This document shows positions 1 to 11,953 of a stretch of 64,000 nt of DNA, one piece after another. The DNA is taken from contig CAWGHO010000002.1 of the NCBI GenBank assembly GCA_963822445.1, positions 448,001 to 512,000 of the forward strand. The letters run 5' to 3'. Position 1 is the first letter of the stretch. Every line of letters begins with the position of its first letter. The stretch is from an uncultured Acidobacteriota bacterium (GTDB lineage: Bacteria > Acidobacteriota > Thermoanaerobaculia > Gp7-AA8). The position numbers were made by a program, and so were the translations under genes. The notes under the pieces are model-generated. The model ran no database searches. It was given only the letters and a program-made list of their open reading frames with translations, and had not been told where the DNA came from.

Positions 1-227
1 TTCTCGAGCGACGTGTCCGTGATGCCAAGAAGCAGCAAAGAAATGGCCTCGCCGGTCGGATCCTTCTGCGCGGCGAAGGCATCGCGGGCTTTCAGAAGTT
101 GCGCGCGCGCCTCTTTGTATTGGTGGGCGACGATCTTCTCCCGCACGCCGGCCAACGGATCGTCCGCGGCAAAGATGAAGGTCGGGAGCAACAGGACGAC
201 CAGAAAAATCGCGCGGAAACCTCTCAT
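1..227 (-). CDS. Partial (5' end only) exported TPR-like protein, possibly TPR-CHAT
   Basis: ATG at 227 overlaps the caspase stop (ATGA). Reads MRGFRAIFLVVLLLPTFIFAADDPLAGVREKIVAHQYKEARAQLLKARDAFAAQKDPTGEAISLLLLG: signal peptide then TPR-like helices. Runs off the window. Confidence 0.65.
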   Translation of the reverse strand, partial: MRGFRAIFLVVLLLPTFIFAADDPLAGVREKIVAHQYKEARAQLLKARDAFAAQKDPTGEAISLLLLGITDTSLE

Positions 228-2437
228 GGCGAGCTTCTCCTCGGCGGAACGGATTCGAGAGTGACCTTGTCGATCGACCAGGTAGCCGGCGTCCGGAACA
301 CTTCTTTCGGCGTGCGCGTGCCCAGGAACGTCATCGCCAGCAACTCCTCGAGCGGCTGCTTGTTCGCGGACGCATCAGGGCCGCGCACTCCGGTCCATTC
401 GAAAGCCGTGAGGCTCGGCAACGGCTCTTCTGTGGAAAGCAGGAAGTAGGTGTCGACTCCGTAGGGCTCGCCAACGACGAACGACCGCGTGCCGATCAGT
501 GGAACCTCGGCGGGCGGCTGCTCCAACGGCTGTCCCGGAGTGCGGGTGATCGGCAGGAGATTCTCAACTGAGCCGGCCGCGGGACTGGGGAACAGCAAAA
601 CACCTCGCCCGTCACTGTCGATGGCAAAGACGTAGACGTATCGCGCATACACGGGCCGCGAAGATGGTGGCTGCCGTTCACGCAGAACGAGCTGGTAGCG
701 GTTACCGCCGACGAGTTTTCCGTCCTCGACAAGCGCTCCCGCGACCGTGCGGAAGGCAAGGCGGTAGTGGGAGCCGGCTGCTCCTGGCGACGTGAGCGCG
801 TGCCAGCCCTGCACCCTCCGCAACCGCACCAGCCCTTCCCGAAGCGCGAACGCGTCGTTCGTCGTCCACGCCGTGCGCAACGGCAGAGTGCTCCGCGCGC
901 GATCGCGCGCCGTTACCAGGGGCCGGACCCACGCGTACTCGACGCGATCGCGGGTCAGGCGTCCGGTCAGTATGTAGTCCGCCGATCGCGGCTCGGCGGT
1001 GAGCTCGACGCCGTCGACACTGCCGACGGCGTCGACGATCGCCGGCGGCACCGGCAGTTGCAGGAAGAGTGACGCTTCAGACGAAACACCGGCCAGCGAC
1101 GCGGCGCCGATCTTCACCTGCCGTTCGGCAGTGACCATCTCCCACGCGCCTCTGTTCCAGCGGAGGAGATGCGTGGGTGTTTCCACGGTCGGATCGTCGA
1201 TCCAGCGGATGCCGCGCCGGGCCGCTTCATCGCGAAGTGCGACTGCGGCCGCCAGCTGCTTCTGTTCCGCGCGGGGAACCCACACCCGCAACGGCGGGCC
1301 AGGCGGAGCGGCCCACGTCACCAGTTCCAGCAACGCGCCCGGCTTCAGCGTTGCGTTGCCGCGGGCGACACGCGCTTCGGAACGCGCGACCCCAAGCAGA
1401 GAAGTAACTTCCAAGCGAACGCCGTCCCGGCCCGGAACGCGCAACTCACTGCCGGCTGTCACGCCGTTCGCCCAACCGCCTTGCAATACGTACGTGCCAA
1501 CGCCGCTCGCTTTTTCCACCGCGATGACGGCCCGTTGATTGCGACGATCGGCTCGCACGCCGAACAGAGGCCTCGATTGCGTCAGCACACTCCCGGCGAT
1601 CACCGGTTGTTGCGCGGGCCTTTCCGTGTGCAGCCACGCCCGGGCGCGGAGAAACGTGTCGCTCGCCGGCTCACCGGCATCGGCGTCGCGCATGGCACGG
1701 ACGAGCGCCCAGGTGAACGCGCCGCGGATCTGTCCGCGATCGTCGAGCATCTCGAACGCGAGGTCGAAATCCTCCGCGGCGGAGAGAATCAACGCGCCAC
1801 GCTCCTCCGGGCGAGCGCCTGCCGATGGATCGCGCACGTCGCGCGGATCGGGCTCGATGCCGCGATGACCGATGCCGCCGGCGAGGCCGCGCACTCCCGA
1901 TCCGCTATGACACGCATCGAGAACGATCGTCAGCCGCCCGCCGCGGTCGAGAATGCGACCGAACAACGGACGCAGTTCCTTGTCACGGACGTCCGACGCA
2001 CCGCTGCGCGAGTCCGCCGGCACGAGCGATTCATCGAGAGTATCGGCCTCGCGCGACAGTGAGTTGCGAACCTGCGATCCGTGTCCCGAGAAATAGAAGA
2101 GGACCACATCGCCCTTGCGCGTCTCTCTTGCGAGCCGCTCGATGGAGCGCAGGATCGCGTCGCGTGTGGCCTGCTGGTCCGTCAGCGCGACGATGTTCGT
2201 GGGCTCGAACGCATAAAGCGCCACGAGCATGTCGCGCATGATCGCGATGTCATTGAGCGCGCCGTCGAGATTGGACCATTCGCGTTCGGGGCCGATGTGG
2301 CGGCGCGGGTCCGGCAGGCGCGACGCCGAATAGTCGTTGATGCCGATCAGCAGCGCACGACGCCGAACCGGCTCCGCATTCAGTCGCGCCGCCAGAAAAG
2401 CTCCGAGCGCCGCCAGGATCCATCCCCACTTTCGCAT
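224..2437 (-). CDS. Exported caspase-family (peptidase C14, metacaspase-like) protein with a long C-terminal region, DUF4384-like at the end
   Basis: RALLIGINDY, FYFSGHGS and LDACHSG (His/Cys dyad); N-terminal signal peptide MRKWGWILAALGAFLAARLNA. Confidence 0.9.
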   Translation of the reverse strand: MRKWGWILAALGAFLAARLNAEPVRRRALLIGINDYSASRLPDPRRHIGPEREWSNLDGALNDIAIMRDMLVALYAFEPTNIVALTDQQATRDAILRSIERLARETRKGDVVLFYFSGHGSQVRNSLSREADTLDESLVPADSRSGASDVRDKELRPLFGRILDRGGRLTIVLDACHSGSGVRGLAGGIGHRGIEPDPRDVRDPSAGARPEERGALILSAAEDFDLAFEMLDDRGQIRGAFTWALVRAMRDADAGEPASDTFLRARAWLHTERPAQQPVIAGSVLTQSRPLFGVRADRRNQRAVIAVEKASGVGTYVLQGGWANGVTAGSELRVPGRDGVRLEVTSLLGVARSEARVARGNATLKPGALLELVTWAAPPGPPLRVWVPRAEQKQLAAAVALRDEAARRGIRWIDDPTVETPTHLLRWNRGAWEMVTAERQVKIGAASLAGVSSEASLFLQLPVPPAIVDAVGSVDGVELTAEPRSADYILTGRLTRDRVEYAWVRPLVTARDRARSTLPLRTAWTTNDAFALREGLVRLRRVQGWHALTSPGAAGSHYRLAFRTVAGALVEDGKLVGGNRYQLVLRERQPPSSRPVYARYVYVFAIDSDGRGVLLFPSPAAGSVENLLPITRTPGQPLEQPPAEVPLIGTRSFVVGEPYGVDTYFLLSTEEPLPSLTAFEWTGVRGPDASANKQPLEELLAMTFLGTRTPKEVFRTPATWSIDKVTLESVPPRRSSP

Positions 2438-2524
2438 CGTCGTGGAGTGACACGAAAACGCGAGAGGCGTTCGATCCGACCTTTCTCAGGATTCGGTGTC
2501 CATTCTGCGGGAAAAGGAGGAATC

Positions 2525-2860
2525 ATGAGTACTTCGGTCGTTCAGGTTGAGAGTTTTTGCCGCGATTGCGGCGCCACCATTCAGTCGCGGGCAGAGATCT
2601 GTCCCAAGTGCGGCGTACGCCAGAAGATGATGACCAGCACCGGAGGGCGCAACCGCACGAGCGCGGCGATCCTCGCCTTGTTTCTCGGTGGGCTGGGCGT
2701 CCACAAGTTCTACCTCGGCCAGTCAGGTCTCGGCATCGTCTACCTGTTGTTCTGCTGGACGTTCCTGCCGTCGATCGCCGGCTTCATCGAAGCCATCGTC
2801 TACCTCTCGATGTCCGATCAGTCGTTCAACGCCAAATACAACAGCATGGCGTACGCGTGA
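2525..2860 (+). CDS. TM2-domain membrane protein with N-terminal zinc ribbon
   Basis: CRDCG...CPKCG then AILALFLGGLGVHKFYLG; RBS AGGAGG upstream of ATG 2525. Confidence 0.9.
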   Translation: MSTSVVQVESFCRDCGATIQSRAEICPKCGVRQKMMTSTGGRNRTSAAILALFLGGLGVHKFYLGQSGLGIVYLLFCWTFLPSIAGFIEAIVYLSMSDQSFNAKYNSMAYA

Positions 2861-2869
2861 TTCGCTCGA

Positions 2870-2899
2870 TTCCTCGCCCCGCGACTACGGGGCGAGGAA
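2870..2899. terminator. Hairpin between convergent genes, likely terminator
   Basis: 12-bp stem TTCCTCGCCCCG / CGGGGCGAGGAA. Confidence 0.6.
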
Positions 2900-2909
2900 C
2901 CGGGTCCCT

Positions 2910-3974
2910 TCAGTCGCGGATGATCGGACAGAACGTGACGTCGTACGGCGATTTGCTGCGCGGGCTCAGATTGATCTGCTCGAGCAGATTCGACCAGAGC
3001 ACCTGCTTCGGATGCAACGCCGCCCAGTCGACCTGAGGCTCGGAGGATGACAACGAGGCCGTGTGCGGCACCAGCCGCTCCGCCGAAGCCGGCGGTGTCT
3101 TCACGAGATCGTAATAGATCTGGAAGTGCTGGCCGGGCGCTGGCAAGGGCGTTTCCGCACCGGCCGCGGGAGCCTCGAACGGCGGGAGATTGAGGATCGC
3201 CATCTCGACGAGGCCGTTCTGTGGATACAGCTTCATCGACCGCTGCTGCGTGCAGTCGCTGAATTTGCTCTCCACGAGCTCCACGAACTCCCCGGAAATG
3301 CGAATGTCCGCGGCCACCCAGTTCGCCAGGGCCTGCGTGTATGGCGCGTCCGGGCCTTCGCCGGAAGGCTTGCGGAAACGCACCGGACGAGCTTTGCCGT
3401 CGATCTTGACGAGCGAATAGGTGAACAGTTTTCCGCTGCGCAGTTTGAAGCGGGCGACGATCATGGGATCGGACGGAACCGCTGAGCCGGTGAGCGCCGC
3501 CCTGAAGCCCTCCGTGCCGGGCGCGATGGCGCTCAGATCAGCGACCCAACTGAAGTCCTCACGCTCCTGCACGGTCGTCGGCACGAGTTGCATCGTTCCG
3601 TTCTCAGCATGGCCCCGAACATCGCTGACGATGTTCAGCGGCGCCTCGGCACCGACGAGCTTCAGATCGGATCCCGCAAGTTTCCACGCCCCACCACCAA
3701 GGAGCGCACCAGTGAGTGCCGTGGACGCCTGCTGCGGGGTCTTGTTCGCATAAATGAACTGCGCGATCGACGCCTGGGCGTCCGTAATGCACGTCCCCTG
3801 GCAACTCGCCGCGCGCGCGAGAACAATCGGCGTGTGATGGGCGAGCGTCGCACCTCCAGCCATCGTGTACTCGTGCGGCGTGTTGACCAGCAGCACGGTC
3901 ACTTCCTTACCGTCCGAGCTCGGCTGGAGCGCAATCAACCCACTGAAAAAGATTCGCAAAACAAACTCGGTCAT
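2910..3974 (-). CDS. Hypothetical protein translationally coupled to the CHAT gene
   Basis: ATG 3974 overlaps the CHAT stop (ATGA), with GAGGAG upstream; 354 aa, MTEFVLRIFFSGL...FCPIIRD; no family recognised. Confidence 0.8.
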   Translation of the reverse strand: MTEFVLRIFFSGLIALQPSSDGKEVTVLLVNTPHEYTMAGGATLAHHTPIVLARAASCQGTCITDAQASIAQFIYANKTPQQASTALTGALLGGGAWKLAGSDLKLVGAEAPLNIVSDVRGHAENGTMQLVPTTVQEREDFSWVADLSAIAPGTEGFRAALTGSAVPSDPMIVARFKLRSGKLFTYSLVKIDGKARPVRFRKPSGEGPDAPYTQALANWVAADIRISGEFVELVESKFSDCTQQRSMKLYPQNGLVEMAILNLPPFEAPAAGAETPLPAPGQHFQIYYDLVKTPPASAERLVPHTASLSSSEPQVDWAALHPKQVLWSNLLEQINLSPRSKSPYDVTFCPIIRD

Positions 3975-6900
3975 TTCTTTCTCCTCGTTTCGTCGTCCGA
4001 AGCTGCAAAAGGGGACGAGGCGTAGCCGATCATCTGAAAAGCCGCCCAACTCCGCACCGGGTGCGTCGCGCTCTGATAGGCGAGCATTTCCAACTGCGCG
4101 TTGCGTAAGGCCTCATCGGCCGCCTGACCATCCCGATAGAGTTGATGAAATCGCACGAGCAGATCCTCGGTATTGGCGTCGTCGGTTACGTTCCACAACG
4201 TGCCGACCACTCCGGGCACGCCCGCCGCGATGAGCGGCCGTACCAGCGGAGCCAGCCCTTCTGGACCTACGGGGGTCCCTCCCGCGCTGCTGCAGGCCGA
4301 CAGGACGGCCACTCGGGTTCTCTTCAATTGCAATTGCTTCAGGAGACGCTCCGCGTCAATGACTCCCGAGTCGCCGTCTGCCGCAGGTGCCATCAGCAAG
4401 AACGACCATGGCGGAACATCCGGATCGGCTACACCGTGCGCCGCGACGTGAAGAATCGTGCTTTCCGCGGCACGGCGTAGAAACTCGGGCACGGTGGCGT
4501 CAGCGTCCATCACCGGCGGGATCACGTCGGCGATCGATGAGTAAAGCGCCGCGATACGCGTCGCCTCACTGCGCGCAGCCGGCAGGCGCTTCAATCCACG
4601 CGTCAATTCGCCGGCCTGGAACGCCGGATCGGCGAACAGACGTACCGCCGTTCTTTTGTCCTTCGACCGCTGCCGGTCCTGCTCCAGGGCGAACGCGTAG
4701 AGCGTTGCGCTTCCAGCGACCGAGACGGCGTGGTCTTCAATCAGGTACCGGCCGTCAACCTTCAACGCGGCGAACGGCAGCCCGTGCATCGAGCGGTCGG
4801 GAACGATCACGAGCCTGGCGCTGTCGCCGGACGGTTTCGATTTCGCGATGAGGGCGAGCGGTTCCGCCACCAGCGCCCGGGAAGGGGCAGCCAATGCGGC
4901 TTCGAAGCGCTCGTCGTCTCCGAGGCTGGCGAAGCGTTGCAGGGCCCGCGTCCAGGATCGGATCTGGCGCTCGCCGACCGGCAGCACCCTCAGGTCGGAA
5001 CCGCCGCCCGTCACGATCCAGACATAGGTCCGATCCTCGAGCACGGCGTATTGCAACAGCGTCGTTCCGGCCGGCAGGATCCGTTCGACGTCCTGGAGCT
5101 GCAACGGCTCGCCGCCACGAATCAGATTACGAAACACATCCGGCAATTCATTCCGCTGCAGCAGGAGGTGCAGCGGCTCGTAGGCCCGTGCCTTCTCCGC
5201 ATAGTCGAATGCTTTCGCGTCCGCGCCGTCTTCGACATAGAGCTGGATCAGGCGGCGATACACTTCCTGACCGCGGGAAAAATACGCGGACCACAGAAGA
5301 CCGGCTTCTTTTTCCTGGCCCGATCGCACTGCGACGCCTTCCTGAGCGCGCAACGTCGCTACGACGCTCTCCAGATCCGCAGTCATCGCGGAACGGTTGC
5401 CTTCGAGCCGGTACAGGTCAGCACGCTGCATCAAAAATGACGCGACCAGAGCTCGGTAACGGGTATCGCCAACGAGCTGGATTGCCTCGGACATCGCGGC
5501 AATGGCGGCCTTGCGATTCGAGCCGGCCAATGACTGACCTTCAATCTCCGCCAGCAGGGCGCGAAAGCCGCGCTCCACTTCCGTGTCCGGCTGGTCGGAG
5601 CTAAGCCCTGCCGCTTCGCCGAGATCGGCACGAGCCCCTGCGCGGTCGCCCAGTTTCAGGCGAATCGCACCGCGATTGAGCACGGCAACGCCCAGGTGGC
5701 GGCGGAGCCCCTCGATTTCCTCTTCAGCTGCACGCGAAAGCCCATCCTCGATCGCTTTGACGGCTAGGTTCTGGTAACGAAGAGCGACCGACGGATATCC
5801 CAGTTCGAGTGCCGAAGCTGCGATCTCGCCGTATCTCGAATGCCGTGCCTGTACATTGACTATGTCGGCGATGCGTTGCTGATCCTGAAAAACCGCTTGC
5901 CACGTGAATTCCGCATGGCCAACGCGACGGTACAAACCAATGATGTTGTTCTGGGTGGTGCTGATATTTTCCCGGTCGTTGATGGTCTTGAAGATCGCCT
6001 GGGCCTTCTTGTATTCGGCGAGAGCATCGATGCTCAGTCCCTCGACCATGAAACAATACCCGCGTCCCGCATGAACGCGCGCGATCACAGATGGATGACG
6101 GCCCTGCGCCTCGCGCTCGATGGCGCGCAAGCCGTCAGCGACCTCGCTGTAACGCCGGTCCATCGCGAGCACGGAAAGGCGGCCCAACGCCGCTCCGACG
6201 CGCAATGGACTGCCCGCCGCGCCCAATGCCGCTTCGGCCTGCTTGAACGCCGCCCCGGCCTTGTCACCAACCCTCAAGGCTCTGCCCGACTGCAGCGCCA
6301 GATGCCCCTCTCGCAACAACGCAAGAACGCGAGGATCGCTTGCTTCACGAATGCGGCGCACCGCATCGAGCAGATACCGGTCACGCTCCAGTTCGGCGAG
6401 CGCGGATGCGATCATTTCCGCAAGAGCGAGGTTTCGTCCCGCCTCTTCAGCGCCGCCTTCACGCGAAGCCGTCGCCCACGCCGGCAGAAGCTCTTCTTCG
6501 ACGTACCTTTGCGCCGCGTTGTGATACGGCGCCACCAGTTCACGCACTGCCACGCGATCGCCGGCCGCGCCTGCGATCGGCAGGCGCTCTTTGTTGAGCT
6601 CCCACAGCGTTGCAGCCTTGCGGCTGCGCTCCGACATCAGCCGGGCATAGTGCTGGCCCGCCTCGCTGGCCCACGAAGGGTCCGCGTCCTTGCGTAACGC
6701 ATCCCATGACCGGATTGCATCGTCAGTGAATCCGAGCGCTTCCTCGGCGAGTGCCCGATTGAACCGTGCCGCGATCGACGACGATGAGCCCGCCACCGCG
6801 CGGTCGGCGGCGGCAAGCGAGCGGACCAGGTCGGACGGCTGATCCTTCCGCTGCGCCCGGACGTAGTACGCACCGGCCAGATCACTGAGGAACGCCGCGT

Positions 6901-7267
6901 CGGATCGGCTCCCGGCGAGCGTCTCCAGTCTCTCGACCGCTGCGTCGGTGCATTGTTCGACTCGGGCGAGTAATTGCACGGCGTCCGTCGCTGTATTCAT
7001 CCTGTCGTCACATTCACTGACGGCAAGAGACACGAGTTCTCTGGGAAGGTTGATCGGCCCGCAATCGGCGGTTTCGAGGACCGAGCCGGCGTGCGGAAGC
7101 CGCTTGGTGCAGGGCCGCCAACGCTCGAATCCGCTCAAGAACGCTTCCGTCGTCCTCAGAGCAGTTTGCTCCTGCCGTTCGCGGCTGCAGAAGAAGCCCG
7201 ACATACAAAGAACGAGGAGGAAGAGCAGGACAGGCTGCCGCCATCGAGCAATGTAGGAAGGGCTCAT
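3971..7267 (-). CDS. TPR-CHAT domain protease (clan CD) with N-terminal hydrophobic export/anchor segment
   Basis: AFDYAEKARA, LVIVPDRSMHGLPFAAL, LHVAAHG, VLSACSS, VVGTLWNV, WAAF; start set at MSPSY to avoid overlapping the sigma gene. Confidence 0.92.
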   Translation of the reverse strand: MSPSYIARWRQPVLLFLLVLCMSGFFCSRERQEQTALRTTEAFLSGFERWRPCTKRLPHAGSVLETADCGPINLPRELVSLAVSECDDRMNTATDAVQLLARVEQCTDAAVERLETLAGSRSDAAFLSDLAGAYYVRAQRKDQPSDLVRSLAAADRAVAGSSSSIAARFNRALAEEALGFTDDAIRSWDALRKDADPSWASEAGQHYARLMSERSRKAATLWELNKERLPIAGAAGDRVAVRELVAPYHNAAQRYVEEELLPAWATASREGGAEEAGRNLALAEMIASALAELERDRYLLDAVRRIREASDPRVLALLREGHLALQSGRALRVGDKAGAAFKQAEAALGAAGSPLRVGAALGRLSVLAMDRRYSEVADGLRAIEREAQGRHPSVIARVHAGRGYCFMVEGLSIDALAEYKKAQAIFKTINDRENISTTQNNIIGLYRRVGHAEFTWQAVFQDQQRIADIVNVQARHSRYGEIAASALELGYPSVALRYQNLAVKAIEDGLSRAAEEEIEGLRRHLGVAVLNRGAIRLKLGDRAGARADLGEAAGLSSDQPDTEVERGFRALLAEIEGQSLAGSNRKAAIAAMSEAIQLVGDTRYRALVASFLMQRADLYRLEGNRSAMTADLESVVATLRAQEGVAVRSGQEKEAGLLWSAYFSRGQEVYRRLIQLYVEDGADAKAFDYAEKARAYEPLHLLLQRNELPDVFRNLIRGGEPLQLQDVERILPAGTTLLQYAVLEDRTYVWIVTGGGSDLRVLPVGERQIRSWTRALQRFASLGDDERFEAALAAPSRALVAEPLALIAKSKPSGDSARLVIVPDRSMHGLPFAALKVDGRYLIEDHAVSVAGSATLYAFALEQDRQRSKDKRTAVRLFADPAFQAGELTRGLKRLPAARSEATRIAALYSSIADVIPPVMDADATVPEFLRRAAESTILHVAAHGVADPDVPPWSFLLMAPAADGDSGVIDAERLLKQLQLKRTRVAVLSACSSAGGTPVGPEGLAPLVRPLIAAGVPGVVGTLWNVTDDANTEDLLVRFHQLYRDGQAADEALRNAQLEMLAYQSATHPVRSWAAFQMIGYASSPFAASDDETRRKK

Positions 7268-7333
7268 CGCAGCTTCTCCACAGGTACCGTGTTTGCGAAT
7301 TGAATGATTCGACCGATGATATACAAGACACGT

Positions 7334-7879
7334 ATGGGCGGCGACCGCGAGAAGCAGTTCGAAGAGCTGTACGCCTACTATCCGGCCGTCGTGAAATTGC
7401 TCCTCGAGCTCGGACTCGAGCTCGAGGACGCCAGAGATCTCGCTCAGAAAGTGTTCGTTCGTGTCTATGAACACATGGATGCGTATCGCGGCGAGTCGCG
7501 ATGGAGTTACCTGCAGAAGGTGACCCGACGTCTTGCCTACAATAAGAACCGCGACGACCACGCCACCAAACGGCAGCACGGCATTGAGGTTCAGACCGAG
7601 GAGATTCTCGAGCTGGAGGACACCCGGACCCCGGCGCCGGACGCGGTATTGCAGAGCAAGCAGGAGACCGAACGCTTGCGACGCGCCATCATTCAGCTCG
7701 AACCGAAAGACCAGACGAGCATTCGTTTGAAGCTGGCCGGATACAGCCTCGACGAGATTGCCCAGGTCGTCGGCACCACCGCTTCGGCACTGAAATCGCG
7801 CCTCAATGGCGTCCGGAAGCGATTGCGCGAGCTGTTGGGTGACGATGTGGAAGGATTGGGTGGGAGCGATGATCAGTAG
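7334..7879 (+). CDS. ECF sigma-70 factor
   Basis: Region 2 DARDLAQKVFVRVY...WSYL; region 4 GYSLDEIAQVVGTTASALKSRLN. Confidence 0.92.
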   Translation: MGGDREKQFEELYAYYPAVVKLLLELGLELEDARDLAQKVFVRVYEHMDAYRGESRWSYLQKVTRRLAYNKNRDDHATKRQHGIEVQTEEILELEDTRTPAPDAVLQSKQETERLRRAIIQLEPKDQTSIRLKLAGYSLDEIAQVVGTTASALKSRLNGVRKRLRELLGDDVEGLGGSDDQ

Positions 7880-8612
7880 GGAAGCGTGGGAAGAGGCGAC
7901 TCGCGATCTGATCGCCGAAGGGCGCGGACGCGTCGGACCGCCGCCGACCTTCGAAGAAGCGGAGGCCCTTTCTCTCGGCCAGCTTTCGGAGGCCGAGACG
8001 GAGCGCGTCCGCGAACGACTTTCCTACTATCCGGACATGCTCGCCATCCTCGTTCACCCGTTCCCGGAAGATGCGGACGGCGTGTTGACTCACGAAGAGC
8101 TCGCGGCGGATCTCGCGAAGATCCGCGAACAGATCCGGCGCGTACCCGAACCGCCGATCACCTTCCCTCGGCGCAATTTCTCGCCCCGCACGATGGCTCT
8201 CGCCGCGGGGATCGTGATCGCGATCTCGATTGGCAGCATCGCCATGTGGCGATTCAGTTCGGAACCGAGGTCCATCTCGACGAGAGTGCTTTTCCCGGAT
8301 GGAGTCCGTGGAGGCACGCGTGGCGTGCCGGAACAGCCGCGCACCCCGCTCTCCACGAAAACCGACTATGAACTGGAACTGCTTTTCAGCGCAGATCGAC
8401 GATCCGGCGAATCGCACATCGAGCTTTACGACGTCAGCAGCAAGACTCCGCGTCTGCTCTGGACTCGCGAACACGTGCAACAGCAGCCCAACGGTGCCTT
8501 CCACGTCAGGCTGGCAACGGACGATCTGGAGCCGGGTCTTTATCGGCTGGTCATCACGGATGAGAAGAACGAGAAACTGGCGGAGTACACGCTACGACTC
8601 TCGGCTCCGTGA
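7869..8612 (+). CDS. Membrane-anchored anti-sigma-like protein
   Basis: Overlaps the sigma 3' end; ASD-like N-terminus (GQLSEAETERVRERL), one TM (MALAAGIVIAISIGSIAMW), Ig-like C-terminus (LEPGLYRLVI). Confidence 0.75.
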   Translation: MISREAWEEATRDLIAEGRGRVGPPPTFEEAEALSLGQLSEAETERVRERLSYYPDMLAILVHPFPEDADGVLTHEELAADLAKIREQIRRVPEPPITFPRRNFSPRTMALAAGIVIAISIGSIAMWRFSSEPRSISTRVLFPDGVRGGTRGVPEQPRTPLSTKTDYELELLFSADRRSGESHIELYDVSSKTPRLLWTREHVQQQPNGAFHVRLATDDLEPGLYRLVITDEKNEKLAEYTLRLSAP

Positions 8613-8633
8613 TCGTCGCTTCAACTACCTTCT

Positions 8634-9500
8634 TCAGAACAAATCCGGCAAATGCATGAAGTTCCGCATCGCCGCGACGGTCCTCGGCGAGATCTCGCTC
8701 AGAAAAAACGTGAGCGCCTCCACGGTCGCCGCGGGAATCGCGTAGCGCGTCACGAACTCCACTTCGACGTCGTGAACCGCACCCTCGGCTCGTGGAAAGA
8801 GATCGTCGACGGCACGCTCGTTGGGATTGATGACTGTCGCGGTGACTCCCGCGTCCGCGAAGGCGGTTGAAAATTGATCGCGACGGTAGCCGTAGTGCGT
8901 GCAGGCGAGACAGGCGACGATCGGTGCGGCGGGACGGTCCACCTTGTCCAGTGCTGTTGCAACCCAGCGGCGGATCTCCGAAGCCGTGCGCGAGCCCTCG
9001 CGATCCTCGGAGATCGTGTCGGCCAGGCCGGGACAGGCCTGGCTCACGATGCGTGACGGCTCGACTCCGCGCGCGACGAGAAGGCGCGGATACGTACCAG
9101 CGTCGATCGTCGTCTGCGTTCCGAAGATGATGGCCACACTCGCCGGATCCGCCTCGAGCTCCTTCAGCACCAGATCGACTCCGGTCTCGACGATGCCCTT
9201 CACCGGAATCACCGCGTCGCGAAAGTACGGCGTGTCGGGAAGCAGCACCGAGAGGGTGTTGCACGCGACGTAAATCGAGTCAGGCTCGAACCGCTCCGTC
9301 ACGTTCCGCAGGAAGCGGTCGAAGGTCTCGATCTTCACCTCGCGGGACGGCATGGAGTTGTAGCCGTAATCGTTTTCCGGCGCAGCGTTGGCGAATGTCA
9401 GGCGCACCGGCTCCGTGAAACCGTGCGTGCGCACGAACCGCTCGGCATACGCGACGACGGAGAGACCGCCCACACCCGAATCGGTGATGAGGATGTGCAT
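8634..9500 (-). CDS. Glutamate racemase-like (Asp/Glu racemase family)
   Basis: DSGVGGLSV, ACNT and LACTHY catalytic Cys motifs. Confidence 0.85.
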   Translation of the reverse strand: MHILITDSGVGGLSVVAYAERFVRTHGFTEPVRLTFANAAPENDYGYNSMPSREVKIETFDRFLRNVTERFEPDSIYVACNTLSVLLPDTPYFRDAVIPVKGIVETGVDLVLKELEADPASVAIIFGTQTTIDAGTYPRLLVARGVEPSRIVSQACPGLADTISEDREGSRTASEIRRWVATALDKVDRPAAPIVACLACTHYGYRRDQFSTAFADAGVTATVINPNERAVDDLFPRAEGAVHDVEVEFVTRYAIPAATVEALTFFLSEISPRTVAAMRNFMHLPDLF

Positions 9501-9503
9501 CGC

Positions 9504-10223
9504 TTATGTCTCGAGCTCGAAGCGGCCGGTCATCAGGTCGAGCACGATCGGCACGTGACGATCCTTGAGCGTGTACAGCGAAGCGTCTTCCAGCTCCAGC
9601 GTGACGAGATTCAGCCCCCGTTCGCCGGCCCACGTGCCCATCGAGCCCGGCGTCGGATAGCCGATCTCCGTGAGAAACGGGAGCGCGCAACGGTCGGCCA
9701 GTTGGCGGCCGAGGTGGGAGGCGCCGGAGTCGTCGACACAGGCGAGCGCCGAATGCAGGCTGACCACGGCGCGAGGTTTCAGCCGCTCGATGAGAGCGAT
9801 CAGTGCCGTCGTTTCCGGTTCCGACGCCGGTTGCGGACCGGGACTCAGGGCGATGTCGCGCGCGTCGTTCGCCCGGCTCTTGTAGCAGACCGGGTCGGGA
9901 CTCCAGCTCGACGTCGGAAAGTTGCGGTTGAGATCCACCCCGCGGGCATTGCCGCGCGTGCCGCGCAGCATCCCGTCCGGATTGCCGCAGAGGATCACCG
10001 CGGCCCGCAGATCGCCGGTCGGCAGACATCGAAGCGCTTCGGAGACGACGACCGTCGTCTCCGCTTCATCGCCATGGATCGCCGCGAGAATGACGATCTC
10101 CGCGCTTCCCGAATCAGGCAGGTAGACAGTGAGAGGAATGCCTTCGGCTGAGGTGCCGTACTCGGTGGTGGCGTGGTGGATCACGCCGCGATCGCGCCGC
10201 GCCACGAGTCGCTGCTCGGTCAT
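9504..10223 (-). CDS. mpaA: Murein tripeptide amidase MpaA (M14 zinc carboxypeptidase)
   Basis: IHGDE, NPDG, RGNARGVDLNRNFP, SEPET, IGYPTPGSMGTW. Confidence 0.88.
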   Translation of the reverse strand: MTEQRLVARRDRGVIHHATTEYGTSAEGIPLTVYLPDSGSAEIVILAAIHGDEAETTVVVSEALRCLPTGDLRAAVILCGNPDGMLRGTRGNARGVDLNRNFPTSSWSPDPVCYKSRANDARDIALSPGPQPASEPETTALIALIERLKPRAVVSLHSALACVDDSGASHLGRQLADRCALPFLTEIGYPTPGSMGTWAGERGLNLVTLELEDASLYTLKDRHVPIVLDLMTGRFELET

Positions 10224-10241: not shown

Positions 10242-10901
10242 TCACCAGCCGTGGTTTGGAGCCGGCGGCACCGGAGGGACGGGAGGCAGCGGCGCGATCG
10301 CCGGCAATCCCGGCCGGATCTCCGAAAGCGGCTTCCCGGCATCCGCAGGCCTTCCTCGCTGCACGACTCCGCCGTCGCGTACTGTCCGCTCGACGCGAGG
10401 ATCGCCCCAGTAAGTGACAGCTCCGCCCGAGTTGATCGTGGCGCGCAGGTCGCGGCGAGCATTGGTGAAGATTCCGCCGCCTGATTCGATGGAAGCGACG
10501 ACGTCATCCGCGGCAATCGATCGAATGTCGACCGTCCCGCCCTGTTCGACGGTGGCGCGGATGGATGCCTGGCTCGGAAACGAACCGGACGCCTGTAAGG
10601 TCCCGCCGTTGAAAACGGAAGCCTCGGCGATCTCCGGCGTGACGACCTCGATGTCCACGCGATAGCCGCGCGGACACGCTTCCCTGTCGCTGCCGATCAC
10701 CAGCTTTTGGCCTTCGACTTCGACGCGGGTGTATCGCGGATCGCCGGTGAGCATCGTCACCCGCTGCACCGGGCCGTACCGGACGATGACCGTCCCTCCG
10801 TTGTGAAGCTCGATCGATCGGAACCGTTGAAGGGGAATGACAGTCTCCGCTGCCGCAGCCGCCGACAGAGTCACCAGAACGAGCAGTCTCAACGCGCGCA
10901 T
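10242..10901 (-). CDS. DUF2807 / GIN-domain exported protein
   Basis: Signal peptide, repeated xxxGG beta motifs, INSGGAVTYWGDP, Pro-rich tail. Confidence 0.75.
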   Translation of the reverse strand: MRALRLLVLVTLSAAAAAETVIPLQRFRSIELHNGGTVIVRYGPVQRVTMLTGDPRYTRVEVEGQKLVIGSDREACPRGYRVDIEVVTPEIAEASVFNGGTLQASGSFPSQASIRATVEQGGTVDIRSIAADDVVASIESGGGIFTNARRDLRATINSGGAVTYWGDPRVERTVRDGGVVQRGRPADAGKPLSEIRPGLPAIAPLPPVPPVPPAPNHGW

Positions 10902-10978
10902 AGTCGTCCTCCGTACTTCGATAGACGTGCGGATCGGGCCGGGGTTAGAGACTCGTGTGGGTGTAAGGTGCGCGCTCC

Positions 10979-11953
10979 ATGACAAAGCAAGCTGTTGCAT
11001 TTCTGATCGCGCTCGGTCTGATCGCGTCCGGCTGTCAAACGACCAGGTCGAACGATCACGGCTTCCTCGCCAGGCGGTCTCCCGACGCGATCCGGGTCAT
11101 GACCTGGAACATCGGACGCGATTCGATCTTCGCCGGGACTGAGTTCGCGCGAACGGAGCAGTTCGCGCGGGTCATGCGCGCCGTTCAGCCGGACATCGTC
11201 TGTCTGCAGGACGTCTGGGCCGGAGCTGAGCGGGCGGCGAGTCTCTTCGACGCGATCCTTCCCGATCGCGAAGGTCGGAAGTGGCAGCACCACGGCGTCA
11301 TCGACAACGTGATCCTCTCCGCCCGCTTCGATCTGAGCCAGCGGGACTCGGGCACTCTCCAGCTCACACAACGCCGCATCCCCGCTCACGCGATGGCGCT
11401 CGCGCGCGACGCCTCGGGCCGCGCGGCATATCTCATCTGCGGACACTTCCAGTCGGGCGCGGGCGTCGCGCACCGCGAGCAGCAGGCCGATCTCGTCGCC
11501 GAGCGAATCTATGCACTTCAATCGACCGCCGCTGTTCCGCTCAGCACTCCGATCGTCATCCTCGGCGACCTGAACTCGAACGCCTCATTCCCCGCCGATT
11601 TCATCACCAACCTGCGCTCGGGACGGATCCGCGGCACCCCGGCGGCTTCCGGCAAGTCGCCGGACTGGGACGGAAGCGAGCTCGAAGACGCGCTTCCACG
11701 CCACAACGGCCGTGGCGAGGACGTCTGGACCTGGAAAAACGAGCGAAGCGAGTTCGCCCCCTCGACGATGGATCGTGTTCTCTATACGGGAAGCGTGGCC
11801 GTCGCGGAGCACTCGTTCGTCCTGAACACCACGACGATGACAGAGGAAGAGCTCACCGCGTCCGGCCTTCAACGAGACGACGTCATGTTCCGGGCGAGCG
11901 AGCGGTTCCATGACCACATCCCGGTCGTCGTCGACTTTCGCATGCGGAAGTGA
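10979..11953 (+). CDS. Endonuclease/exonuclease/phosphatase (EEP) family lipoprotein
   Basis: Lipobox ASGC; RVMTWNI, DIVCLQD, ILGDLN, DHIPVVVDF. Confidence 0.88.
   Translation: MTKQAVAFLIALGLIASGCQTTRSNDHGFLARRSPDAIRVMTWNIGRDSIFAGTEFARTEQFARVMRAVQPDIVCLQDVWAGAERAASLFDAILPDREGRKWQHHGVIDNVILSARFDLSQRDSGTLQLTQRRIPAHAMALARDASGRAAYLICGHFQSGAGVAHREQQADLVAERIYALQSTAAVPLSTPIVILGDLNSNASFPADFITNLRSGRIRGTPAASGKSPDWDGSELEDALPRHNGRGEDVWTWKNERSEFAPSTMDRVLYTGSVAVAEHSFVLNTTTMTEEELTASGLQRDDVMFRASERFHDHIPVVVDFRMRK

Follow-up and report, generated by a model that had tools for sequence, protein, structure and literature searches.

A conserved gene module linking an ECF sigma/anti-sigma pair to caspase-family proteases in Thermoanaerobaculia

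Why are genes for caspase-family proteases with export-type N-termini located next to those of a sigma factor and its probable anti-sigma factor, and do they form one signalling system? The question is raised by positions 1-8612 of a 64,000-nucleotide stretch of DNA (the whole stretch is called hereafter the window) from an uncultured Acidobacteriota soil bacterium of the class Thermoanaerobaculia (assembly GCA_963822445.1, contig CAWGHO010000002.1, positions 448,001 to 512,000). The original prediction, drawn from the letters of the window, described an extracytoplasmic, CRISPR-independent cascade in which proteases cleave the anti-sigma factor and/or a neighbouring protein of 354 amino acids (aa). 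The genes it named were all found at their places, on the basis of the list of open reading frames (ORFs) and of family matches. Five of them form a module that is also present in other genomes. This module is read here, with a confidence somewhat short of even, as a split and expanded form of a protease-gated switch of the extracytoplasmic function (ECF) sigma factor type. The switch would resemble that of DdvA, an anti-sigma factor of Myxococcus xanthus (PMC11506125), and would drive the feed-forward expression of extracytoplasmic clan-CD proteases.

The five genes are arranged as follows. The gene of the ECF sigma factor (7334-7879, + strand, 181 aa) is followed by that of a putative single-pass anti-sigma factor (7869-8612, + strand, 247 aa), which overlaps the ECF stop by 11 nt. 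On the opposite strand, beyond a divergent control region of 66 bp (7268-7333), lies the gene of a protease combining tetratricopeptide repeats (TPR) and a CHAT domain (3971-7267, − strand, 1098 aa). It is followed by the gene of the 354-aa protein, called here unk354 (2910-3974, − strand), the start of which, at 3974, overlaps the CHAT stop in an ATGA sequence (translational coupling). The fifth gene (224-2437, − strand, 737 aa) encodes an orthocaspase, i.e., a metacaspase-like protease. The GC content of this region is 0.60-0.68 and the window thus contains numerous spurious ORFs; real genes were told apart by family matches and conservation. The longest ORF of the CHAT protein extends over 3971-7579 (− strand). 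The start chosen is the ATG at 7267, after a GGAG, and gives the 1098 aa. The distance of 66 bp announced between the ECF and CHAT starts holds for the ATG at 7267 and the ATG at 7334, alternative ATGs being present at 7304 and 7316.

Conservation and duplication of the module

The unk354 sequence was used as query and gave 188 relatives at E≤1e-3, 26 of which served to build an alignment (A1). The profile of A1 led to 78 loci in 61 assemblies of a species-representative genome collection (at least 78, the scan being limited by pattern). In these loci, all stop-to-stop frames of at least 70 codons were translated and searched with the window proteins, and only loci with an adequate flank were counted. 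The 13 organism-named unk354 relatives among the matches listed are all from Acidobacteriota or Thermoanaerobaculia. The record titles of the 78 loci mention Acidobacteriota/Acidobacteria, Thermoanaerobaculia or Ca. Gilichinskyi gelida (a Thermoanaerobaculia genus).

A CHAT gene is located directly upstream of unk354 in 74 of 75 loci according to the script, and in 75 of 75 after reading by eye locus L068, where the CHAT ORF stops 6 nt ahead of unk354. The ECF sigma gene is divergent from the CHAT gene (65/65 eligible loci) and adjoined by an anti-sigma gene (64/64). The caspase gene is downstream and on the same strand in 61 of 64 loci, and present anywhere in the locus in 63 of 64; in L011 it was not found within 4.7 kb. 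Homologues of the TM2-domain gene located in the window between caspase and unk354 occur in only 3 of 71 loci, and a second CHAT gene after the caspase in 7 of the 53 loci with an adequate flank. These counts therefore define a core of five genes (ECF sigma, anti-sigma, CHAT, unk354 and caspase), while the TM2 gene and the second CHAT gene are accessories of the window's own clade.

The conservation of this neighbourhood, on which the original prediction depended, is thus almost without exception. The same arrangement in 78 loci and 61 assemblies is therefore more than chance: order and orientation are kept in 64-75 of 64-75 eligible loci, down to 30% identity for unk354 (L077). It is hardly conceivable that the genes are mere neighbours, or are associated in this genome only, without any joint function.

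Two or three modules are present in 16 of the 61 assemblies, this number being a lower bound. For each of the five proteins, copies found within one genome have only 28-51% identity, which indicates an ancient duplication of entire modules that have since been retained intact. Some copies are close to each other: contig CAVWUH010000002.1 carries three modules (L001, L039 and L055) inside about 160 kb, and contig JALYJW010000002.1 carries two (L015 and L027) about 15 kb apart.

Features of the module proteins and of the control region

The CHAT domain of the TPR-CHAT protease (Pfam CHAT, E=8.1e-52) covers approximately residues 807-1081. A Cys-rich subdomain is located at the N-terminus, with a long helical repeat region in between. 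The catalytic motifs are AAHG (H944) and SACS (C992). Both residues are invariant in 33 of 33 CHAT homologues; among 66 homologues, H944 is kept in at least 97% and C992 in 100%. In the orthocaspase, the Peptidase_C14 domain (Pfam, E=9.7e-24) covers residues 25-285, with the motifs FSGHGS (H119) and DACHSG (C176). All the 24 family members considered have a C14 match, and H119 and C176 are invariant in them; among 61 caspases, H119 is kept in at least 97% and C176 in 100%. The two clan-CD proteases with intact His/Cys motifs that had been announced are thus real as regards the motifs of the window, and their catalytic pairs are kept in at least 97% of the homologues. This conservation indicates that both proteases are kept active.

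The same families carry export segments. The window CHAT protein has one hydrophobic N-terminal segment according to hydropathy, of the lipoprotein or signal type. Among its homologues, a hydrophobic stretch is followed by a Cys in 60 of 61, and a canonical lipobox ([GAS]C) is found in 42 of 61. The mature N-terminus contains four further Cys, conserved at 68-88%, which may be engaged in disulfides; this would fit an extracytoplasmic site. The N-terminus of the caspase, MRKWGWILAALGAFLAARLNA, is signal-peptide-like, and a signal-like hydrophobic core precedes the domain in 62 of 64 caspase homologues (alignment-based count); the caspases of L069 and L073 have a lipobox instead of a plain signal core. 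The export or anchor segments ascribed to both proteases are therefore a property of the families (60/61 for CHAT, 62/64 for caspase), and the opposite case, i.e., cytoplasmic proteases, finds no support there.

The CHAT protein used as a single sequence has no match among PDB sequences. Its family profile, at E≤0.01, matches TPR proteins in the PDB and, weakly, separase at the catalytic Cys only; DdvA is absent from these matches. For the caspase, the best matches among PDB sequences are metacaspases (5e-14 and weaker). Its C-terminal part, about 450 aa, is conserved; DUF4384 is matched weakly there (24.9 bits for a cut-off of 27). The alignment to Yca1, via the correspondence of Yca1 and TbMCA2 residues, would place D63, S117 and D174 of the caspase at three of the four S1-pocket residues of TbMCA2, A60 standing for Cys92. 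In TbMCA2 this pocket is made of Cys92, Asp95, Ser156 and Asp211 (PMC4357240). Such a putative acidic S1 pocket would fit a predicted cleavage after Arg or Lys. As compared with the metacaspases and orthocaspases Yca1, TbMCA2, AtMC4 and GSU0716, the module caspase has in common the C14 fold, the SGHG and D-x-CHSG motifs and, putatively, the acidic S1 pocket. It differs by its signal peptide, its C-terminal extension and its fixed linkage to an ECF pair.

Other genes and other gene orders are observed around the caspase. The module caspase gene does not follow unk354 in L068 (2179-5544) and L070 (2288-6088) but the anti-sigma gene, in the same orientation as the latter (3 nt apart in L068). In L037 (1-2700), an extra caspase gene begins 3 nt after the anti-sigma gene. 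In 57 of the 78 loci (e.g., L017:11120-11524 and L051:11137-11529), unk354 and caspase are separated by a gene encoding a small lipoprotein (about 130 aa, without Pfam match); this gene is missing from the window and its clade. In L062 (11093-12967), one ORF of 624 aa encodes both this small lipoprotein and the caspase, with a lipobox, the small domain and then the C14 domain; the two proteins are therefore tied together by a natural fusion. Some loci have a gap of 1.4-2 kb between unk354 and caspase, and this gap contains, in the opposite orientation, an extra gene for an exported caspase-like protein (Pfam C14, E=4e-08 to 5e-07), i.e., L006:11114-13027 (−), L007:6698-8650 (−), L014:11464-12483 (−) and L016:11530-12519 (−). 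The extra protein of L006 contains FG-GAP-like repeats.

At the beginning of the window, the caspase stop overlaps, again in an ATGA sequence, an ORF of 75 codons (3-227, − strand) that is cut by the window start, its remainder lying beyond. Its N-terminus is signal-like. A phmmer search with this fragment matched (E from 5e-16 to 6e-06) the N-termini of ORFs of about 1040-1250 codons which adjoin the caspase on its downstream side in 6 loci. Two of these ORFs were checked, those of L002 and L004 (1045 and 1129 aa), and both contain a CHAT domain (Pfam, E=2.7e-68 and 6.5e-69) plus TPR families. The fragment is therefore very probably the beginning of a second TPR-CHAT protease. What had been described as a third exported TPR protein coupled to the caspase is thus right as regards the coupling and the signal-like N-terminus, and has to be corrected as regards its nature, on the basis of homology, the window holding only 75 codons of it.

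The product of 7334-7879 matches Sigma70_r2 (E=7.3e-08), Sigma70_r4_2 (E=1.6e-07) and Sigma70_ECF in Pfam, and exceeds the cut-off of the NCBIfam model sigma70-ECF (TIGR02937; 71.8 bits for a cut-off of 42.9). Its PDB matches are SigE, SigW, SigH and CnrH. By these matches it is classified as an ECF sigma factor (sigma-70 group 4), with sigma2 and sigma4 regions only and a length in the usual range of about 180-200 aa.

The product of 7869-8612 has a single transmembrane segment at about residues 108-128 according to hydropathy. Its AlphaFold2 (AF2) model (pLDDT 85.7) consists of N-terminal helices (4-22, 28-35, 41-52 and 55-62) and a transmembrane helix (106-129), then, beyond the membrane, of a strand (136-141), an exposed loop (142-158, pLDDT about 75) and a seven-strand sandwich (159-245). 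The fold search relates this sandwich to immunoglobulin (Ig)/cupredoxin-like domains. Curated models are of no help: there is no Pfam match, and the NCBIfam model NF052375 «antisigma» reaches 19.5 bits for a cut-off of 100. Nor does the family profile have a PDB relative at E<0.05. The position of the gene, its overlap with the sigma gene and the predicted structure nevertheless fit a membrane anti-sigma factor. Only four residues are invariant in 30 anti-sigmas and two of them, Arg151-Gly152, are located in the exposed loop. An Arg-Gly pair is present within 60 aa after the transmembrane segment in 60 of 62 anti-sigmas (the choice of the transmembrane segment in L024 is doubtful). The window protein contains no Cys.

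The region between the divergent starts is short in all clades. From the ECF start to the codon of the CHAT lipobox, the distance has a median of 103 nt and lies between 40 and 170 nt in 57 of 61 loci. This leaves, in every case, no more than some tens of bases from one start to the other. Ten control regions aligned from the window's clade have the pattern TTCC-TATATCAT-N-CTCATTC-N-CGGTAAAC, with GGAGA and the start of CHAT coming next; TATCAT is invariant in them. The pattern TATATCAT-N5-12-TCATTC is found once in the window (7302-7323) and in none of 100 shuffles. It is present as one copy in each of 6 loci, always at the ECF/CHAT intergenic position, and no second copy was found upstream of the window caspase. 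Other clades have different conserved strings at the same place, e.g., GCGAACCGCGTATCTTATG, and several loci have ATGATATAG on the ECF strand just ahead of the ECF start. These clade-specific motifs would fit paralogous sigma factors, each with its own promoter. A scan of 1-9600 for sigma-70 promoters gave no site.

The fifth protein, unk354, has no match in Pfam, NCBIfam or PADLOC. Its profile matches 875 of 1.84 billion cluster representatives at E≤1e-3, and 326 of these at 1e-10 or better. The 150 relatives listed are mostly of 330-390 aa, and none of the 39 distant relatives scanned contains a Pfam domain. The AF2 model is mostly beta (pLDDT 85.5, pTM 0.88) and matches no fold of PDB or BFVD at E≤1e-3. 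In the family linked to the module (76 sequences), C58 is conserved at 99%, C62 and C349 at 100%, and H47, H283 and H321 at 97% or more. The wide family has H47 without exception and, almost without exception, H283, C349 and an N-terminal G-L. The protein has no signal peptide or transmembrane segment, and its N-terminus, modelled as strands, is the most conserved stretch; a Pro-rich stretch precedes a C-terminal helical region. These features, with the conserved His and Cys, suggest that unk354 is probably cytoplasmic and perhaps metal-binding. The original prediction had also considered it as a possible substrate of the proteases. It appears a poor candidate: it carries no signal or transmembrane segment, its conserved N-terminus is part of the fold, and the proteases are of the exported type.

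A gasdermin fold was considered for unk354 and rejected (no PDB match with Foldseek at E≤1e-3, TM-scores of about 0.1). The ESM Atlas gave no usable match; the neighbours of P0039 in it are meaningless, the Atlas model having a pLDDT of 0.28. Rare longer relatives exist (P0082, P0088, P0091 and P0269; 568-776 aa), which have N-terminal extensions. P0082 and P0269 begin with signal-like segments, and P0082, P0091 and P0269 each lack H283 and/or C349. The C-terminus of P0269, the sole protein given by a search for longer forms, looks like read-through. Finally, P0233 (669 aa) combines a distant unk354-like domain with a subsequent region that resembles a serine protease by its TAAHV and GDSGA motifs; Pfam Trypsin_2 is matched there at E=0.14 only, and there is no PDB sequence match.

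A proposed split protease-gated switch and its alternatives

The original prediction took the control of sigma factors by CHAT proteases to be known in the cytoplasm only. This view is outdated, as DdvA of M. xanthus is an anti-sigma factor with a periplasmic TPR-CHAT part (PMC11506125); an extracytoplasmic CHAT-sigma system is therefore a variant and not the first of its kind. There, the TPR-CHAT is fused to the anti-sigma factor, with its active site toward the juxtamembrane linker, so that protease and substrate are in one polypeptide. DdvA stripped of TPR-CHAT is exposed to RseP and lost in an RseP-dependent manner. Self-cleavage of DdvA as its own site-1 protease is proposed there and remains unproven (PMC11506125). 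Fused DdvA-like forms are reported only from Myxococcota and one Comamonas (PMC11506125).

The module and DdvS-DdvA have in common an ECF sigma factor, a single-pass anti-sigma factor and an extracytoplasmic TPR-CHAT with intact His/Cys. They have also in common a proposed logic, i.e., a site-1 cut by CHAT at the juxtamembrane linker and then RseP (PMC11506125 and PMC6061681). In the module, however, the TPR-CHAT is separate, has a lipoprotein-type signal and is divergently encoded, whereas it is the C-terminal part of the anti-sigma factor in DdvA; no fused anti-sigma/TPR-CHAT form was seen in the 78 loci. The module anti-sigma has no Cys and therefore no zinc-binding domain, unlike DdvA-like anti-sigmas. 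Its ectodomain is an Ig-like domain of about 90 aa, and orthocaspase and unk354 are extra conserved partners.

The co-variation of the module proteins was analysed on the 46 loci with all five proteins, by means of pairwise distance matrices (499 permutations for the partial Mantel tests). When the other module proteins are controlled, the anti-sigma ectodomain is correlated with the CHAT protein (partial Mantel r of 0.51 for the TPR part and 0.46 for the CHAT domain, p=0.002). The values are −0.15 and −0.02 with the caspase. The cytoplasmic N-domain of the anti-sigma is weakly correlated with CHAT (0.18 and 0.13). Matrix regression on corrected distances gives, for the ectodomain, a coefficient of 0.41 for CHAT (p=0.001) and −0.21 for caspase. 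It gives, for unk354, 0.49 with sigma (p=0.003) and 0.37 with caspase (p=0.03), and the best predictor of sigma is unk354 (0.74, p=0.001). These values are suggestive, but only suggestive, of CHAT being the cognate partner of the ectodomain, and hint at a link between unk354 and sigma in the cytoplasm. A complex prediction with CHAT residues 220-1098 (A2) and ectodomain residues 129-247 (A3), made with residues 1-219 of CHAT omitted and without controls, gave a score of 0.00 (mark 0.32), which counts neither for nor against an interaction.

The proposed split switch would work as follows. The ECF sigma factor would be held at the membrane by the single-pass anti-sigma, whose outside part is a small Ig-like domain borne by the exposed loop. 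The separate TPR-CHAT lipoprotein would reside on the same side of the membrane as this ectodomain and be its cognate partner. A signal sensed by the long TPR region would lead CHAT to cut the anti-sigma in the Arg-Gly loop, or to license the cut; intramembrane proteolysis would come next and release sigma. Free sigma would drive the divergent promoter region and raise the CHAT-unk354 operon. It would also raise, directly or indirectly, the orthocaspase, plus the second TPR-CHAT in the window's clade. As the CHAT-unk354 operon and the caspase would both be raised by sigma, the circuit would feed forward. The orthocaspase, extracytoplasmic and predicted to cut at basic residues, and unk354, a probably cytoplasmic His/Cys protein, would be downstream or parallel arms.

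Several points weigh against this switch. What was observed is gene content, module conservation, export signals, catalytic residues, anti-sigma topology and co-variation; the binding, the cleavage and its site, the direction of control and the functions of unk354 are deduced. All the loci were found via unk354, and the counts thus tell how often the partners accompany unk354 and not the reverse. Beyond Pfam CHAT, the module CHAT has no detectable sequence relation to DdvA. In the window protein the lipobox, SGFFC, is atypical, which would be compatible with a signal anchor instead. Comparing distance matrices measures co-variation only indirectly and is known to be prone to false positives. 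Moreover ectodomain and CHAT diverge fastest (median identity of 0.34 and 0.38), and their correlation is possibly inflated thereby. The Arg-Gly pair is missing from 2 of 62 anti-sigmas (L005 and L006) and could be structural instead of a cleavage site. A standard ECF −35/−10 pair was not recognised in the control region. Finally, the gene order of L068, L070 and L037 points to the caspase, and not CHAT, as the closest partner of the anti-sigma in those loci.

Among other explanations, the most serious, and only somewhat less likely than the switch, makes the proteases an output only. The anti-sigma would sense alone or via an unlinked protease, and CHAT, unk354 and caspase would be the regulon of sigma, as envelope proteases for turnover, remodelling or attack/defence. 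An ECF sigma usually acts on its own gene and on those next to it, and here a single short conserved region is common to both divergent starts. According to the authors of the ECF classification, conserved neighbours may as easily be targets as regulators (PMC7826278), which speaks as well against a sensing role of CHAT. The position of the window caspase and second CHAT as a separate unit also suits effector genes. The ectodomain, however, co-varies with CHAT, and not with the caspase nor strongly with sigma, which is unexpected of a pure target gene, and this type of domain is on the side of sensing in the DdvA precedent. Duplication of whole modules with all parts kept fits cognate pairs, although cis-linked targets would co-duplicate too. 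Less probable, and rather doubtful, is a two-step cascade in which the orthocaspase is the site-1 protease, cutting the anti-sigma after the conserved Arg, with TPR-CHAT upstream as sensor or activator. The putative metacaspase-type acidic pocket residues (D63, S117 and D174) would fit the Arg151-Gly152 loop, yet this pocket is no evidence for cutting at Arg151. The caspase genes located after the anti-sigma in L068 and L070, and the extra one there in L037, go in the same direction. The small lipoprotein encoded ahead of the caspase (57 loci), and joined to it in one ORF in L062, suggests that the caspase is tethered to the membrane close to the anti-sigma. On the other hand, the caspase has no partial co-variation with the ectodomain by either method described above, and its gene is the last of the protease operon in most loci and a separate unit in the window.

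A cell-death or anti-phage module, with unk354 as a gasdermin-like executioner cleaved by the clan-CD proteases and the ECF pair controlling expression only, is very improbable. A beta-rich protein without annotation does adjoin caspase-family proteases with repeat domains, and the Pro-rich stretch of unk354 before its C-terminal helical region would be compatible with such a role, as would the serine protease-like C-terminal region of P0233. DdvS/DdvA controls defence genes (PMC11506125). However, export signals are carried by the proteases and not by unk354, which matches neither gasdermin nor any other PDB fold, and the Trypsin_2 match of P0233 is the insufficient one given above. The only PADLOC match among the five module proteins is a generic caspase model. 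Defence islands are patchy, whereas the module occurs all through one bacterial class and shows a deep vertical divergence.

Surroundings, related systems and meaning of the module

Directly after the unk354 stop, a perfect GC-rich stem-loop of 16 bp is predicted by RNA folding at 2867-2902 (− strand), between the convergent unk354 and TM2 genes. Its energy is −33.2 kcal/mol (z=−4.2), and an equal stability was reached in 0 of 200 shuffles. It is probably the end of the CHAT-unk354 transcript; as it has no U-tract, its role as a terminator is putative. The TM2 gene (2525-2860, + strand) encodes a protein of 111 aa with a TM2 domain (Pfam, E=1.8e-15) and a zinc ribbon, outside the core module. 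Caspase and second CHAT in the window are thus set off as a separate unit by the hairpin and by this opposite-strand gene. On the other side, 8634-10223 (− strand) contains an ORF of 288 aa with a DSGVGGL motif and no Pfam match at E≤0.01, and next to it an M14 peptidase gene; a DUF2807 gene is located at 10242-11000. These three genes look like neighbours unrelated to the module.

Among the module genes, no CRISPR or CBASS gene (CBASS being the cyclic oligonucleotide-based anti-phage signalling systems) was observed. PADLOC gave no Cas match for the five module proteins, the scan for cas genes being confined to these. Type III-E systems nevertheless deserve comparison, as in them Csx30 is the substrate and an ECF-type sigma factor is involved. 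Both the craspase of type III-E and the module tie a TPR-CHAT protease to the control of an ECF-type sigma. The craspase is cytoplasmic, RNA-guided and monomeric, whereas the module protease families carry export signals. It associates Cas7-11 with the TPR-CHAT Csx29 (PMC10028731).

A second comparison concerns the regulated intramembrane proteolysis (RIP) of anti-sigma factors. Its classical examples are RseA/DegS/RseP and RsiW/PrsW/RasP. The module would share with them a single-pass anti-sigma whose bulky ectodomain is removed by an extracytoplasmic cut, proposed as regards the module. The site-1 candidates of the module are clan-CD cysteine proteases (CHAT and C14) encoded in the module itself, whereas those of classical RIP are serine proteases or metalloproteases. 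In classical RIP, a site-1 cut outside is followed by the action of an intramembrane site-2 protease (PMC11506125). In the ECF54 group of Actinobacteria, CHAT, subtilase and carboxypeptidase genes are found in the context and read as a possible proteolytic control (PMC8999054), and the group lacks an anti-sigma (PMC7826278). The module belongs to another phylum and has an anti-sigma, whose presence argues against membership of ECF54. The main text of the ECF classification does not mention CHAT or caspase, and its supplements may list related contexts (PMC7826278). No description of an ECF sigma/CHAT/orthocaspase module was found by full-text searches on these families and on Acidobacteria.

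The module is new in its trans arrangement, in having orthocaspase and unk354 as fixed partners and in its duplication into diverged copies. As protease and anti-sigma are separate in it, they can be separately expressed, mutated and titrated, and the question raised by DdvA becomes directly testable. The module is also a defined genetic setting for exported bacterial orthocaspases, for CHAT proteases and for the sizeable unannotated unk354 family, whose confidently predicted fold is without match in PDB or BFVD. A wider reading, unlikely as a whole, is that Thermoanaerobaculia hold paralogous, insulated periplasmic switches. Each TPR-CHAT lipoprotein would be the dedicated sensor-protease for its own anti-sigma ectodomain, a self-amplifying ECF response would deploy further exported caspase-family proteases, and unk354, co-evolving with sigma, would be an intracellular third layer. 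If true, bacteria would have a signalling cascade of the caspase type that is extracytoplasmic and independent of CRISPR. The two or three diverged copies per genome suggest a repertoire of sensors in a major and little-studied group of soil bacteria.

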